Positions 36,556 through 42,479 of a stretch of DNA of 42,479 bases are shown piece by piece. Below the pieces are notes generated by a model that saw nothing but the letters and a program-made list of their open reading frames with translations, searched no databases and was not told where the DNA came from. Numbering within the stretch: the first letter of the stretch is position 1; each line of letters starts with the position of its first letter. The translations under genes were made by a program, and so were the position numbers. This DNA is from a virus (taxonomy: Duplodnaviria > Heunggongvirae > Uroviricota > Caudoviricetes): the IMG/VR virus record IMGVR_UViG_2939127364_000002. One strand, 5' to 3'.

Positions 36556-37578
36556 ATGGCAGTAAAAATTTCAGGTGTACTGAAAGACGGCACAGGAAAA
36601 CCGGTACAGAACTGCACAATCCAGCTGAAAGCAAAACGTAACAGCACCACGGTGGTGGTGAACACGCTGGCCTCAGAAAATCCGGATGAAGCCGGGCGTT
36701 ACAGCATGGACGTTGAGTACGGTCAGTACAGCGTTATTCTGTTGGTGGAAGGATTCCCGCCGTCACATGCCGGGACCATCACCGTGTATGAAGATTCCCG
36801 ACCCGGTACGCTGAATGATTTTCTCGGTGCCATGACGGAGGATGATGCCCGTCCGGAGGCTCTGCGGCGTTTTGAGGCGATGGTGGAAGAAGTTGCCCGC
36901 CAGGCATCGGAGGCATCGCGGAATGCCACCGCCGCATGGCAGGCATCTGAACAGGCGCAGACATCAGCAGGTCAGGCATCGGAAAGCGCCACGGCAGCAG
37001 TGAATGCAGCCGGAGCGGCAGAAGCATCAGCCACACAGGCAGCCTCATCCGCAGCATCTGCAACCAATGCGGCAAATAGCGCTTCTGCTGCAAATACTGC
37101 AAAAACCGGCGCAGAAGCTGCAAGAGATGCTGCAAATACTGCAAAAACCGGCGCAGAAGCTGCAAGAGATGCTGCAAATACTGCAAAAACCGGCGCAGAA
37201 GCTGCAAGAGATGCAGCTCTGGATGCCCAAACTGCTGCTGAATTAGCTGAAGCAAATGCAAAAATTTCTGAAACAAATGCAGCTGAGAGTAAGCGATTAG
37301 CAGAAGCAGCGATAGATGTGGCAAACTCATCTGCAGGAATATATCAGGACACCACATCTGGTTTGGCGGGAACGGCAACCGGAGGTTATTTTTCGGTGCC
37401 GTCACCCCTGGATGACGAGGTGCTGATTTTGTATCGGAATGACGCCGGAATTGCTACTGAAGTTAAGAGATACCCGAGCGCGGCGGGGGTTGAAAACACG
37501 CGCGTATCGATGATAGGGGTGGCGGCCAGTCTGGTGCTGACACAATCAATTATTGCGGCGCATCACGCGTTTCTATGA
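36556..37578 (+). CDS. stf: Side tail fibre protein, proximal part (lambda Stf N-terminal domain)
   Basis: MAVKISGVLKDGTGKPVQNCTIQLKAKRNSTTVVVNT... matches the lambda Stf N-terminus; contains three perfect 42-bp tandem repeats. Confidence 0.8.
   Translation: MAVKISGVLKDGTGKPVQNCTIQLKAKRNSTTVVVNTLASENPDEAGRYSMDVEYGQYSVILLVEGFPPSHAGTITVYEDSRPGTLNDFLGAMTEDDARPEALRRFEAMVEEVARQASEASRNATAAWQASEQAQTSAGQASESATAAVNAAGAAEASATQAASSAASATNAANSASAANTAKTGAEAARDAANTAKTGAEAARDAANTAKTGAEAARDAALDAQTAAELAEANAKISETNAAESKRLAEAAIDVANSSAGIYQDTTSGLAGTATGGYFSVPSPLDDEVLILYRNDAGIATEVKRYPSAAGVENTRVSMIGVAASLVLTQSIIAAHHAFL
37087..37212 (+). repeat. Three perfect tandem 42-bp repeats inside stf (14-aa unit AANTAKTGAEAARD)
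   Basis: Identical units starting at 37087, 37129 and 37171. Confidence 0.9.
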
Positions 37579-37594
37579 CAATGAGGAAACTGAA

Positions 37595-38914
37595 ATGAGC
37601 GTAGAAACAGAACTAGCAAAACTGACGACAGCAACAGCCGCGCTACTGGAGTCGGTGAATGTAAACAAAGCGGCGCTGGATGCAGCAGTCATAGCGGCAA
37701 ATGCAGCAGAAGCAAAGGCCACCGAACAGGCTGGCGTGTCAACAACCAAAGCGGCCGAGGCAGTAGCCGCCGCGCAAGATGCGTTAAATCGGGCTCAAGC
37801 TGCGTTGGATTCAGCGGCCACGGCAGCAGCGCAAGCTGCCGCAGCCACAGCGGTTGCGACAGCGAATTTAGAAACCGCACTACCAGCCAGCGCATACATT
37901 AAAGATGCTAACCGTTACGCCGTCGAGCGCGCGTCAGGCGGGCGTCAAACCGTGCTGTATGATGATCTAGGCAATCCAAGCGTGATGAATATCATCCCAA
38001 TTTTTCGTTACGAGGATCTCGGCTACAGCGAGGACATGGGAACCGGGGTAGTCAGCTGCTTTGATGTTGGCACTGGCACCAACAAAAGCGAGATTTTTAT
38101 CGGTGCATTTCAGTCATCATTGGTCGGCAGTCGCGCAGTGTCATTGCCGCGTACAGGCCCGGCGACATTCGTAAACTTCGATACAGCAAAAGGCTACTGC
38201 GCAAACAAAGGAGCTGGCTGGCATCTGATGACAATGCACGAGTGGGCAGCAATTTCGCTGTGGTGCATGGCTAATGGCTTCGAGCCGCGCGGAAACACGA
38301 ACTTCGGACGCGCACATGATCGCTACGTAGAGCGAGGTCGCCGCATGGATGGCGGACTGCCGGGCGATACCGCCGGAACACCGCGCGTGCATGCGGGATC
38401 AGGGCCGGATGCGTGGCGGCACAATAATTCGCCGTGGGGAATTAGTGATTTAGTCGGCAACGTATGGGAATGGCTAGACGGATTCAAGTTGCAAGATGGA
38501 CAAATCATTGCCAGTACATTTAACACGCAAGCTGAAGCAAGTTGGGCTGCACAAGCCGCCTATTTCGATGCAACGCAGACCACCGGCGGTGCGCCGCGCC
38601 TGTCTGATGCAGTAGTCAATCGCCTGGGAGCAATCGGCGATAACACGACCGACGGATACTCAGCAAGCGGAAATTTCGACGTTATGGAAAAAACAGGCAC
38701 ATATGTCAGCAATCAGCTGCTGAAGCGTCTATTGGTCGAGCCATCGACAGTGCTGCCGAAAGGTCGCGTATATATGCGAAATTTTGGCGAGCGGCTCCCG
38801 TATCGTGGCGGCGCTTGGGACTACGGCATCAATGCCGGCCTCGCCGCGCTCGCTTGCATCGCTTCGCGCGACTTTGCGCGCACCAGCATCGGGTTCCGCC
38901 TCGCTTTTGCGTGA
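37595..38914 (+). CDS. Distal tail fibre protein with C-terminal FGE-sulfatase (SUMF1)-like domain
   Basis: Ala-rich N-terminal region; C-terminal ...GWHLMTMHEWAAI...GNVWEWLDGF...RGGAWDYG...SIGFRLAFA matches formylglycine-generating-enzyme family motifs; GAGGA RBS before ATG 37595. Confidence 0.65.
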   Translation: MSVETELAKLTTATAALLESVNVNKAALDAAVIAANAAEAKATEQAGVSTTKAAEAVAAAQDALNRAQAALDSAATAAAQAAAATAVATANLETALPASAYIKDANRYAVERASGGRQTVLYDDLGNPSVMNIIPIFRYEDLGYSEDMGTGVVSCFDVGTGTNKSEIFIGAFQSSLVGSRAVSLPRTGPATFVNFDTAKGYCANKGAGWHLMTMHEWAAISLWCMANGFEPRGNTNFGRAHDRYVERGRRMDGGLPGDTAGTPRVHAGSGPDAWRHNNSPWGISDLVGNVWEWLDGFKLQDGQIIASTFNTQAEASWAAQAAYFDATQTTGGAPRLSDAVVNRLGAIGDNTTDGYSASGNFDVMEKTGTYVSNQLLKRLLVEPSTVLPKGRVYMRNFGERLPYRGGAWDYGINAGLAALACIASRDFARTSIGFRLAFA

Positions 38915-38958
38915 CCTGATGTTGTGTTTTCTGATGGCGCCACGACAGTGGCGCTTTG

Positions 38959-39081
38959 CCTGGAGGCTGTCGCATGAATGAGTTAATCATCGAGCAAAAA
39001 GTAAGGGAGATGATCTTGTATGGCTACATCGCACTGCGGCAACTGCCAAGAGCTAACACATACAGACTGAGAAATCATTAT
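38959..39081 (+). CDS. Possible small protein (40 aa)
   Basis: MNELIIEQKVREMILYGYIALRQLPRANTYRLRNHYSQNP with GGAGG 8 nt upstream; not in the track. Confidence 0.25.
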
Positions 39082-39111
39082 TCTCAGAACCCATGACCAA
39101 AGGAGCTAAAA

Positions 39112-39492
39112 ATGACAAAAACATATCTGCACGCCGGCATCGCGCACGCTGATACATCAGAAGAATACATGATGGAGCTAGGCATCGACGCCGACACCAG
39201 AGCAGCAATCATGAGCCAAATTGACTTTGAAACAGCGCAGGATGCAGTAGCAGCAAAAAAACTGCGTGATGCCGCCGTAGCTGCCATCAAAGTAACTGTA
39301 AGTGGCAAAGTTTTCGATGGAGACGAGGTCGCGCAGGGGCGCATGGCGAGAGCGGTGGCAGCAGCTGAAAGCGCGACCATCACCACATATCAATGGAAAC
39401 TTGCAGACAACAGCGTCGCTACAGTGTCGCTGGATGAGCTAAAGCAGGCGCTGGCGTTGGCATTCCAAGCTCAAAGCGAATTATGGGTATAG
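39112..39492 (+). CDS. Hypothetical protein downstream of the tail fibres (possible fibre accessory protein)
   Basis: 126-aa track ORF with AAAGGAG RBS; family not confidently recognised. Confidence 0.45.
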   Translation: MTKTYLHAGIAHADTSEEYMMELGIDADTRAAIMSQIDFETAQDAVAAKKLRDAAVAAIKVTVSGKVFDGDEVAQGRMARAVAAAESATITTYQWKLADNSVATVSLDELKQALALAFQAQSELWV

Positions 39493-40077
39493 GCGATCTG
39501 CAACTGATTGCACCCATTGGGGAGATAATAAATGATATACAGAACCATGTAAACGGCGCTCGCAACATTTTAGCGGCGGGGCACGCCGTACTTGCCTGTG
39601 GAGGGACGGTGCAGTCAGACCGCCCGTTGAAGCAGGAACCAGACGCTGAGCAATCAGCCGTCACCCACTAATGGGAATCCCCCTCCTGAGTCACGAAGTG
39701 CGAAGGTGGGGGAGGATGTCAATCTGGTGCTGCTGTATCAACTCGCATCAGCAGTATCCGGTATTTCTTTCACTCGCTTAGAGCGGTGGTTTCTTCCTCC
39801 GTCGCAATACCTGCATCAACAGCATCCTGACGCCGGTCAATCTCTGAGTCTGCCTGCGCTCGTAAATGAACGTTTACGAAAATGAATATCCTCCACAGCG
39901 TAATCAAGACGTAACTGTGGCGGGCATTGAAAATCTTTACTCACTCACTAACCAGAATTCAGCCTCTTCAAACATTTCCTGAACAGTACGGCTTATCTGT
40001 TCTTTCTCATGCTTGCTGGCGTCAGTGTTGATCGCCGGCAGTGTCATCATCGGTTTGCAAGGCTTTGCGCTGCTTTT

Positions 40078-41235
40078 CTATGACACCTTCTCATCAAGCC
40101 AATCCGCCCACCACTGCATCATTTCTCTGCGCTTATCGAGATACTGAGCATGGTTGTAAATTCCACGTACAGATCCGCCGTTGGCATGTGCCAGTTGCAC
40201 TTCAATGGCGTCGGCAGGCCATTCGTGCTCGTTCATAATCGTGCTGAATTCATGCCTGAATCCGTGACCGCTTTCCAGACCTTCATAGCCGATTTGTTTG
40301 ATCACAAGCAATACCGCGTTCTCGCAGATTGGCTTCTTCTTATCGTTGCGCCCGGCAAAAACAAACTCTGAGACTGGTTTGGTGATTGAGCTTAGCGTAG
40401 TGAGAAGTTCAACCACCTGGTCTGACATCGGGACCACATGAATTTTGCGTCCCTTCATCACACTGGCGTCGATGGTGATAATCCTGTTTTCAAAATCGAC
40501 GTTCTTCCATAGCATGGAACGAAGCTCTTTCGTTCTTAGGGCTGTATAACGTAAAACTTTTGTCGCAATGAGCGATACGATACTTCCTGAAAATGTTGCC
40601 AGTGCTTTGTTGAATGCAGGGATCTGGTCTGCTGGAAGGAACGGGAAGTTCTTCTTGCGGTATCCCTTCATGGCGTCAGCAAGGTCAGGTGCCGGGTTAT
40701 ATTTAGCCCTACCAGTGACAATAGCGTAACGGAAAACCTCGCCGCATCTTCTGCGGGCTTTGTTGGCTCGCTCCATTGCACCGCGATCTTCAAATCTGCG
40801 GATTACTTCCAGCAGTTGCATCGGCTCAATATCCTGAATTTCAAGGCCGCCGATGATGGGTAAAATGTCGTCATCAAACATTTTTGCAAGTTCATTTGCA
40901 TAGCCTACTGACCAGACTTGCTTCTTGTGCTCGTACCATTCCTTGTAAATGGCGCTAAAGGAATTGTTGTTAGACGAAGTCTTTTTCGCTTTTACCGGAT
41001 CGATACCAACCGAGATGTCTTTCCTCGCGGTCCATGCTTTATCCCTTGCCTCCTGCAAAGTCATAAGCGGATATTTTCCGACGGTCAGGATTTTCTCCTT
41101 ACCGTCAATCTTGTAGCGAAGCTGCCATACCTTTTTCCCGGATACAGGAACATAAAGGTACAGGCCATTACCATCGAGAAGGCGGTATGGTTTTTCTTTC
41201 GGCTTTGCTGCTTCAATCTGCTTAACGGTGAGCAT
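40078..41235 (-). CDS. intS: Tyrosine integrase, IntS-like
   Basis: MLTVKQIEAAKPKEKPYRLLDGNGLYLYV... recognised as the CPS-53/KplE1 integrase; start placed at ATG 41235 rather than track start 41271; adjacent to argW. Confidence 0.9.
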   Translation of the reverse strand: MLTVKQIEAAKPKEKPYRLLDGNGLYLYVPVSGKKVWQLRYKIDGKEKILTVGKYPLMTLQEARDKAWTARKDISVGIDPVKAKKTSSNNNSFSAIYKEWYEHKKQVWSVGYANELAKMFDDDILPIIGGLEIQDIEPMQLLEVIRRFEDRGAMERANKARRRCGEVFRYAIVTGRAKYNPAPDLADAMKGYRKKNFPFLPADQIPAFNKALATFSGSIVSLIATKVLRYTALRTKELRSMLWKNVDFENRIITIDASVMKGRKIHVVPMSDQVVELLTTLSSITKPVSEFVFAGRNDKKKPICENAVLLVIKQIGYEGLESGHGFRHEFSTIMNEHEWPADAIEVQLAHANGGSVRGIYNHAQYLDKRREMMQWWADWLDEKVS

Positions 41236-41281
41236 GGGTAAAAATCCGGTGGGTAAAATTATTTTATCCACTTTTTACCCG
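41236..41281. promoter_or_regulatory. Cluster of GGGTAAAA / TTTTACCC 8-mers upstream of intS (candidate recombination-protein binding sites)
   Basis: GGGTAAAA at 41236..41243 and 41251..41258, inverted TTTTACCC at 41273..41280. Confidence 0.35.
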
Positions 41282-41396
41282 TCATGGAGTGCGGCTGTCA
41301 ACGATCTGACGCGAACCATGACGAACCGTGAATATACGGAAGGCTTGATATTCAGGGGATTTTGCGGACTGGTACGGATGGGAGCGAACTGATAAA

Positions 41397-41471
41397 TGGT
41401 GTCCCCTGCAGGAATCGAACCTGCAATTAGCCCTTAGGAGGGGCTCGTTATATCCATTTAACTAAGAGGAC
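41397..41471 (-). tRNA. argW: tRNA-Arg (anticodon CCU)
   Basis: 75-nt cloverleaf GTCCTCTTAGTTAAATGGATATAACGAGCCCCTCCTAAGGGCTAATTGCAGGTTCGATTCCTGCAGGGGACACCA with anticodon CCT and encoded CCA. Confidence 0.9.
41411..41426. repeat. att core copy within the argW T-arm
   Basis: Exact 16-bp match to 221..236. Confidence 0.6.
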
Positions 41472-41546
41472 AATGCGGCATGAGTATACCCGCTAATGGA
41501 GTGCGGGGTAAGTACGCTGCCGCTCGATTGCTTAAACCCTCGCCAT

Positions 41547-42479
41547 TTATGCCGGGTTTTTATAATTTTTCTTAATGTTTTCCGCACGTTCTGCTTTTTG
41601 GCGTGCTTCTGCTTTACGCTTATTGCTCATGTCGTTACGAATCTGTGCATGACTCATTAACGCGAAGATAAAGGTGCCGCCGCAGATGTTCCCCGCTAAA
41701 GTAGGTAGTGCGAAGGGCCAGATGAAATCGCTCCAGTGCAGCGTACCGTTAAACACCAGATAGAGGATTTCAACAGAACCGACCACGATATGGGTGGTGT
41801 CACCCAGGGCAATAAGCCAGGTCATCAATATAATCACCACAATCTTTGCCGCACCCGCTGCAGGAAACATCCAAACCATAGTGGCGATCAGCCAGCCGGA
41901 AATGATCGCGTTGGCAAACATCTCGCTGGGGGTGTTTTTCATCACATCCATGCCGATTTTGACAAATGCATCGCGAGTTTCTTCATTGAAGATAGGCATA
42001 TATTCAAATGCCCACGCCGCAATACCTGTCCCGAGAATATTACCCAGCAGCACGACGCCCCATAACCGTATAAGTAAGCCGACGTTGCTCATTGTCGGTT
42101 TTTGCATGACGGGTAGTACCGCAGTCACGGTATTTTCGGTAAATAATTGCTGGCGGGCCATAATGACGATAATAAAACCAAAGGTATAACCGAGATTCTC
42201 CAGCAAGAAGCTGCCCGGCACACCTTCCAGTTCGACTTGAAATATCCCTTTTGCCAGTAACGAAGCGCCCATCGACAGACCCGCCGCAATGGCTGACCAC
42301 AGTAGCGCCACTGCGTCGCGTTCCAGCTCTTTTTCACCATCCTGGCGGATATGCTCATGAATTGCCATCGCCCGGGAGGGGAGTCGGTCTTCATCTATTT
42401 CTATTTTTTTGCCGCGCTCTTTTTCTTCGCTCTCAACTTCAATTTCGTCGCTGTGTTGATCAATTTTGTCGTTGTCCAT
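41547..42479 (-). CDS. yfdC: Inner-membrane formate/nitrite-transporter-family protein
   Basis: 310-aa ORF MDNDKIDQHSDEIEVESEEKERGKKIEIDEDR... recognised as YfdC, the gene next to argW in E. coli; its start codon is the last 3 bases of the window. Confidence 0.85.
   Translation of the reverse strand: MDNDKIDQHSDEIEVESEEKERGKKIEIDEDRLPSRAMAIHEHIRQDGEKELERDAVALLWSAIAAGLSMGASLLAKGIFQVELEGVPGSFLLENLGYTFGFIIVIMARQQLFTENTVTAVLPVMQKPTMSNVGLLIRLWGVVLLGNILGTGIAAWAFEYMPIFNEETRDAFVKIGMDVMKNTPSEMFANAIISGWLIATMVWMFPAAGAAKIVVIILMTWLIALGDTTHIVVGSVEILYLVFNGTLHWSDFIWPFALPTLAGNICGGTFIFALMSHAQIRNDMSNKRKAEARQKAERAENIKKNYKNPA

Follow-up and report, generated by a model that had tools for sequence, protein, structure and literature searches.

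The window analysed here is the whole 42,479-nt stretch of IMG/VR virus record IMGVR_UViG_2939127364_000002 (Caudoviricetes), and its positions 36556-39492 carry, on the plus strand, a side tail fibre (Stf) locus of lambdoid type. A proximal fibre gene (36556-37578, 340 amino acids (aa)) encodes an Stf-type N-terminal anchor, an Ala-rich shaft and a C-terminal adaptor domain, and a distal fibre gene (37595-38914, 439 aa) encodes a long N-terminal helix (about residues 3-88) and then an FGE-type C-type-lectin (CLec) domain. Remnants of an avd gene and of a reverse transcriptase (RT) gene follow, and a gene for a 126-aa DUF4376 protein (39112-39492) is the last of the cassette. Why encode one fibre in two pieces? 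An earlier note on this DNA had offered three answers: a genuine two-gene fibre, a mutation that split stf, and a programmed frameshift. For the feature as it was posed our answer is deflationary, since the first of these is what we find.

The junction of the two fibre genes

The proximal open reading frame (ORF) ends at the stop TGA 37576-37578, and the last upstream stop in the +1 frame is TGA 37538-37540, so that the +1 frame is open from 37541 and 38 nt (37541-37578, plus strand) are common to both open frames, as the earlier note had reported. These 38 nt are not a coding overlap, however: the +1 frame simply contains no stop there and does not contribute to the translated distal gene, whose ATG lies at 37595, 16 nt past the proximal stop. 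The 16-nt intergenic spacer (37579-37594, plus strand) reads CAATGAGGAAACTGAA and contains the Shine-Dalgarno (SD) sequence GAGGA (37583-37587), 7 nt from the ATG. The stop-free run 5' of this ATG amounts to 18 codons, and because 43% of +1-frame positions in the long plus-strand ORFs of the window are stop-free over 18 codons, the overlap is what chance would be expected to produce. TTG 37553 is merely the first possible distal start in the list made by the ORF tool. The distal N-terminus, MSVETELA..., is kept in every relative, and the sequence 5' of it is the proximal C-terminus read out of frame.

Which relatives share this layout? A DNA search of a phage collection with positions 36500-39000 matched just the first 400-560 bp, that is, the Stf N-domain; E. 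coli genomes and the protein database supplied the informative relatives. The whole stretch is present in only two complete E. coli genomes, ET5 and EC6, and across the proximal C-terminus, stop, spacer, SD and ATG (more than 160 nt) the window, ET5 and EC6 are 100% identical. In contigs of SU10-like podophages (L003, L006) and P2-like myophages (L004, L005), the junction reads TTT GTA TGA or TTT GCA TAA, then the spacer variant CAACGAGGACACTGAA, then ATG. Kept across these junctions are the stop, the SD and the ATG; what varies is the last sense codon (CTA, GTA or GCA), the identity of the stop (TGA or TAA) and the frame relation of the two genes. The frame relation changes in L003, where the spacer and start have undergone a 31-nt tandem duplication, the gap is 47 nt, the distal gene lies in the +2 frame, and the equivalent frame is closed, leaving no overlap. 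(At L003 8322-8368 the duplication spans the spacer, the start codon and the first distal codons, and before the true start there is now a decoy ATG that opens an ORF of 9 codons.) An arrangement of two ORFs, the second with a ribosome-binding site of its own, thus recurs in ET5 and in phages of two other morphotypes, which bears out the two-gene option, and 37541-37595 is an ordinary boundary of two genes, with no recoding and no broken gene. Between the two fibre genes we saw nothing that resembles a terminator or a strong promoter, and a terminator-like hairpin (36518-36539, plus strand; 8-bp stem with 7 GC pairs, then a T run) stands after lom, just 5' of the fibre operon; this arrangement suggests that both genes are co-transcribed.

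The proximal protein is lambda-like in its first part. Residues 3-136 match the Pfam family PF08400 (phage_tail_N, E=1.9e-72), the protein matches PHROG tail fibre families, and the gene stands after J (32343-35825) and lom (35892-36491), which is the position of a lambda-type stf. Its start is most likely ATG 36556 (MAVKISG..., 340 aa; as in lambda Stf) and not GTG 36550, which the ORF tool had listed. Lambda Stf is intact in Ur-lambda and is represented by orf-401 and orf-314 in lambda PaPa. To orf-401 the proximal protein is 91% identical, but only over aa 1-118, so that the description of this ORF as lambda-Stf-like in the earlier note holds for that segment and fails beyond it. An orf-314-like distal part and a downstream Tfa chaperone gene, the other marks of a lambda-type Stf, were not found: BLASTP of the distal protein against orf-314 gave just a 40-aa low-complexity match (E=0.004). 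Since the distal ORF has no meaningful similarity to orf-314, the close match between the combined length of the two ORFs and an intact lambda Stf, which had also been pointed out, is a coincidence.

The shaft contains a perfect tandem repeat of a 42-nt unit in 3.1 copies (37086-37214, plus strand; 100% matches), each unit encoding the 14 aa ANTAKTGAEAARDA. EC6 has three copies and ET5 one, and the single unit of ET5 indicates that shaft length varies by repeat copy number; the ET5 Stf-N gene product has 386 aa. The EC6 orthologue (L002 5057-6079, NZ_CP182398) translates as an intact 340-aa ORF nearly identical to that of the window. RefSeq/PGAP labels it a pseudogene, 'incomplete; missing C-terminus', and annotates it only to 5833, which is probably an annotation artefact arising from comparison with long Stf proteins.

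The distal protein and its lost retroelement

The distal protein matches PF03781 (FGE-sulfatase; E=1.5e-6, 28.6 bits against a cut-off of 23.3) and phrog_2889 (E=9e-119), and its residues 102-438 match PDB entry 5VF4 (E=2e-59). That structure is TaqVP, the variable protein of the diversity-generating retroelement (DGR) of a Thermus aquaticus prophage (PMC6328139). Among the homologues retrieved, 69 are stand-alone proteins of 439 aa. The N-terminal helix is predicted for residues 3-88 with a predicted local distance difference test (pLDDT) score of 73-87 (AlphaFold, 26 homologues). Structure prediction of the CLec domain failed, so the assignment of this part to the FGE subtype of the C-type-lectin fold, the fold that bears the variable region in DGR targets, rests on sequence. 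The public annotation of the gene, 'SUMF1/EgtB/PvdO family nonheme iron enzyme', is a misleading label.

The variable region (VR; 38790-38909, plus strand) encodes the last 40 residues of the distal protein, and its conserved 3' end, GGGTTCCGCCTCGCT, resembles an initiation of mutagenic homing (IMH) element and is common to the VR and the template repeat (TR). In ET5 the TR is a 120-nt copy of the 3' end of the 439-aa gene (L001 7969-8088) and lies between avd and RT. The lineage of the window has lost its own TR, and the VR was therefore compared with that of this relative: the two are 83% identical, and of 20 mismatches 15 fall at template adenines, which make up 26 of the 120 template bases. 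The VR of ET5 differs from the same template at 12 positions (11 at adenines) and that of EC6 at 17 (14 at adenines). Across the 69 homologues, high residue entropy (up to 3.3 bits and up to 15 residues) is confined to template codons that are AAY or have A in the first two positions, and the codons between the hypervariable ones are invariant. The VR thus differs from the family TR mainly at template adenines, as expected of a DGR target.

About 27 nt past the VR lies the hairpin GCGCCAC-GACA-GTGGCGC (38937-38954, plus strand), a candidate DGR target-recognition element with a 7-bp GC stem and a 4-nt GRNA loop (GACA), which is kept in all five aligned loci (window, ET5, EC6, L003 and L006). 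In the target elements reported for phage DGRs (PMC3240598), a GC-rich stem of 7-10 bp carries a GRNA loop of 4 nt and lies 4-34 bp from the VR; by this description, the IMH-type VR end and the GC-rich hairpin downstream of it are both in place. The match to TaqVP, the adenine-biased VR, the target hairpin and the Avd-RT linkage in homologues together mark the distal gene as a DGR variable-protein gene, and not as the distal half of a lambda-type Stf for which the earlier note had taken it.

Where, then, is the retroelement? The gene order in ET5 is lom, the Stf-N gene, a 16-nt gap, the 439-aa gene, avd, a non-coding gap, RT and the DUF4376 gene. ET5 Avd scores 100.6 bits with the NCBIfam model NF033474 (cut-off 80) and is already labelled a DGR protein in public annotation, and the ET5 RT has 353 aa with the motifs LGNLTSQ and YMDD. 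In the window, tblastn with these proteins recovers the first 32 codons of avd (38974-39069, plus strand; aa 1-32, 87.5% identity) and the last 26 codons of RT (39072-39149, plus strand; aa 328-353, 92% identity). The deletion junction lies at 39052-39055, and about 1.48 kb corresponding to ET5 L001 7693-9175 is gone: the rest of avd, the whole TR and most of RT. We found no further RT or Avd match and no second VR-like copy in the window, so that all three components of a complete DGR (an RT beside the target, a TR in cis and an Avd) are missing. Because avd, TR and RT are mostly or wholly deleted, the fibre tip stays fixed in the state that diversification last gave it. The acceptor signals, that is, the IMH-like end and the GC hairpin, have outlived the mutator.

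This loss appears to be recurrent. EC6 has a similar deletion, with the junction moved by about 8-10 nt on each side relative to the window; in L003 avd is entirely absent and RT codons 302-339 are left, and in L030 RT codons 260-323 are left. Judging from these remnants, the avd-TR-RT core has been deleted at least three or four times independently (window, EC6, L003 and L030). A single deletion shared by the window and EC6, which would imply diversification in trans after the loss of RT, was considered and rejected, given that the two junctions differ by some 8-10 nt on either side; independent deletions after diversification suffice. The sites of decay are window 38974-39149, L002 7475-7641, L003 9722-9835 and L030 7003-7194, and the variable gene and the hairpin are intact each time. 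Recurrent loss of the mutator suggests that one receptor specificity, and with it a host range, is repeatedly fixed. A separate case is P0067 (485 aa, on a metagenomic contig of 1949 nt), in which the template translation (NSRVNTNSNIGFRLALEQRQKL...) stands unchanged in the 3' half of the VR and the reading frame runs on past the TR; this looks like homologous recombination between VR and TR that deleted avd, and it would be a second route of DGR decay.

The adaptor, the fused fibres and a docking model

The C-terminal adaptor of the proximal protein (aa 254-340; 37315-37575, plus strand) would be a docking domain, and its end residue is common to proteins with unrelated N-termini. A search with the last 97 proximal residues found proteins of 86-162 aa that fall into four groups by their unrelated N-termini and that all end in ...SLVLTQSIIAAHHAF(V/L/A); their termini, ...IIAAHHAF(L/V/A) and then the stop, fall at the same residue as that of the proximal protein. 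Each of these genes stands directly 5' of a 439-aa FGE-sulfatase gene (contigs L003-L006), and in the P2-like contigs the pair comes right after gpI, in the tail-fibre position. Wherever the adaptor or the distal N-terminal module is present (7 of 7 loci), the two occur together, and 27 other loci have neither. Contig scans yielded 3 distant loci in genomic contigs and 24 mostly distant loci in viral contigs; none of these carries the adaptor, and the distant CLec homologues in such contigs have Avd and RT downstream in nearly all cases. The adaptor consists of a small unit of a helix and three strands (YFSVPSP...LILYRN...KRYPS) and a terminal helix ending ...SIIAAHHAFL, and in an AlphaFold model the strands score a pLDDT of 84-93 and the last helix 56-72. 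No Pfam or NCBIfam family covers this domain of about 85 aa or the distal N-terminal module.

Single-chain relatives show where the CLec domain belongs. Among the 120 best homologues, 15 carry PF08400 on the same polypeptide, as fused Stf-N::CLec chains of 547-679 aa from Klebsiella, Citrobacter and metagenomes. When three of them (P0104, P0113 and P0092) are aligned with the concatenated proteins of the window, the proximal shaft is followed as far as ...NAAESKRLAE and continues directly with ...VATANLETALPASAYIKD of the CLec domain, the fused junction reading ...AESKRLAE into ...VATANLETALP. Missing from the fused proteins are roughly residues 257-340 of the proximal protein and 1-88 of the distal one. 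Because they join the shaft to the CLec domain, we conclude that this domain forms the tip of the same fibre and that the split version is distinguished by an extra block of about 175 aa, which comprises the adaptor domain, the stop, the ribosome-binding site and the distal N-terminal helix. This block around the junction may be a docking module.

We therefore read 36556-39492 as a lambdoid side tail fibre made of two separately translated proteins, of which the distal one is a DGR variable protein whose retroelement has been deleted, and we put the probability of this reading at about 0.85. The proximal N-domain would attach the fibre to the tail tip and continue through the Ala-rich shaft into the adaptor end of about 85 aa; the distal gene, presumably co-transcribed, would be translated from its own SD and ATG into the long helix and the CLec tip. 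Adaptor and distal helix would then dock non-covalently into one fibre, with an interface expected between the helix ...SLVLTQSIIAAHHAFL and the distal MSVETELAKLTTATAALLESVNV..., and since the shaft helices are likely to trimerise, docking is probably part of a trimeric shaft. In relatives with an intact cassette, adenine-specific mutagenic retrohoming would rewrite the receptor-binding face.

Several observations count against this reading. At the junction the close E. coli relatives hardly differ and therefore do not count as independent witnesses, which leaves the metagenomic contigs as the independent support. Five of the 20 differences between the window VR and the ET5 TR are not at adenines, presumably because the lost template of the window lineage differed from that of ET5. 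The adaptor model is modest (mean pLDDT 71), and a Foldseek search of the PDB with it gave no significant match (best E=0.15, to a generic SH2-like alpha/beta fold); the CLec part of the distal AlphaFold model is unusable (pLDDT about 25). The structure models are of single chains. Finally, intS abuts the tail-fibre end in an unusual orientation, and the whole prophage could be defective.

Could the two halves of the junction be a portable plug and socket? We raise this tentatively, as a possibility that falls somewhat short of being probable: an adaptor of about 85 aa and a distal helix of about 90 aa might mount one and the same DGR cassette on siphophage tails with a lambda Stf base, on the baseplate of P2-like myophages and on the tails of SU10-like podophages. 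The cassette (distal gene, avd, TR, RT and DUF4376) would be mounted by grafting the adaptor onto a resident fibre stub. If it is portable in this way, orphan targets such as that of the window could be rewritten in trans by a co-resident or superinfecting phage with an intact cassette, because the IMH-like end and the hairpin are identical across the lambda-Stf-based, P2-like and SU10-like phages. A transferable adaptor pair would also be of interest for engineering lambda-type particles with swapped or evolvable receptor-binding tips.

Alternatives, counterparts and the prophage end

Could the locus instead be a broken stf gene, with a frameshift or nonsense mutation having split a continuous reading frame, as in laboratory lambda PaPa, and left the fibre defective? 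Laboratory lambda is annotated with both orf-401 and orf-314, the proximal N-terminus here is lambda-like, and the PGAP label on the EC6 orthologue points the same way, yet we consider this very unlikely. No indel separates the window from ET5 or EC6, the EC6 ORF is intact, and we found no intact relatives that read through the junction and differ by a small indel; the single-chain forms lack some 175 aa around it. The proximal C-terminus is a native one, its stop position being kept in the adaptor proteins of unrelated phages, the distal gene keeps its SD and ATG, and its product bears no relation to orf-314. We give as little credence to a programmed +1 frameshift within 37541-37578, for example by slippage of tRNA-Phe from UUU to UUC before the rare CUA and UGA, which would make a fused long fibre protein beside the short one. 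UUU-C before a rare codon and a stop could slip in principle, and the distal frame is +1 and open over the last 12 proximal codons in the window, ET5, L004, L005 and L006; the open frame in the other contigs is, however, mere conservation of the proximal coding sequence, and an open stretch of this length has a chance probability of about 0.43. Neither a conserved slippery site nor a fixed frame relation was found: the codon after TTT varies (CTA, GTA, GCA), as does the stop (TGA, TAA), and the duplication in L003 shifts the distal gene to +2 and abolishes the overlap, whereas the gene's own initiation signals, the SD and ATG, are kept everywhere.

Least probable of all is that a sequencing or assembly error created the stop and the change of frame. 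Such errors are a general possibility, but two other complete E. coli genomes have exactly this junction, metagenome contigs assembled independently conserve it, and the databases hold a 100% identical counterpart of the distal ORF product from an E. coli genome (P0001). A little more weight, though still very much a minority share, goes to the distal protein being no part of the fibre but an independent DGR-diversified protein encoded beside a naturally short Stf. TaqVP-like proteins can be stand-alone monomers (PMC6328139), and many distant relatives consist of CLec alone (311-335 aa). Against this stand the fused Stf-N::shaft::CLec proteins, which place the same CLec domain at a fibre tip, the strict co-occurrence of the adaptor with the distal N-terminal module, and the place of the pair in the tail-fibre slot of the P2-like contigs.

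The two-piece fibre with its DGR tip has counterparts among known systems. Mtd of phage BPP-1 is likewise a DGR-diversified C-type-lectin receptor-binding protein with a gene of its own, a place at the tail-fibre tip and its VR at the extreme C-terminus; there, too, a GC-rich hairpin with a GRNA loop of 4 nt comes after an IMH-type end (PMC3240598), and ET5 shares the order target-avd-TR-RT. The window differs in being a lambdoid siphophage with an Stf-like fibre base whose avd, TR and RT are deleted, and its protein is of another sequence family, with no match to Mtd, the nearest solved structure being TaqVP. With TaqVP it is homologous over the whole CLec domain, but TaqVP is a single-domain monomer, whereas the distal protein has an additional N-terminal helical module of about 95 aa and an adaptor partner on the preceding protein. 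Compared with lambda Stf/Tfa, the likeness lies in the position after J and lom and in the PF08400 N-terminus; past aa 118 there is no similarity, the split in the window is native with its own ribosome-binding site, and the next gene encodes a DUF4376 protein in place of a Tfa-type chaperone, tfa being present just as fragments further downstream. The Klebsiella and Citrobacter single-chain fibres (for example P0090, P0101 and P0104) share the Stf N-domain family, a partly identical shaft, a CLec domain 85-90% identical and a hypervariable VR, and differ in being one polypeptide of 548-679 aa without the proximal adaptor (about 85 aa) and the first 88 or so distal residues. The literature we searched contains no description of DGR-tipped Stf fibres in E. 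coli or other enterobacterial prophages, which does not prove that none exists. The locus offers a clear E. coli lambdoid example of a side tail fibre with a DGR variable-protein tip, and a set in which fused and split fibres, and intact and decayed retroelements, can be compared.

The CLec/VR domain is also found, at 85-90% identity, on at least three other N-terminal fibre modules that are not of the Stf type (P0082, P0114, P0099 and P0088; for example MIYTTGTIAINGNT..., 539-744 aa). DGR tip modules thus appear to be extensively shuffled among enterobacterial phages.

The DUF4376 gene at the end of the cassette (PF14301, E=1.9e-7; PHROG tail families) is in the same position in ET5 (L001 9237-9617), where it overlaps the 3' end of RT, in EC6 and in L003 (9841-10305). 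Its product may be an assembly factor that replaces Tfa for the two-piece fibre. Beyond it, in 39500-42479, the fibre end adjoins intS (40078-41271, minus strand), the tRNA-Arg(CCT) gene argW (41397-41471, minus strand) and yfdC. A lambda-like prophage should have its integrase at the opposite end. From about 40048 onwards the sequence resembles other E. coli intS regions, and tfa fragments lie at 39739-39875; the region at argW may belong to a composite or rearranged prophage.

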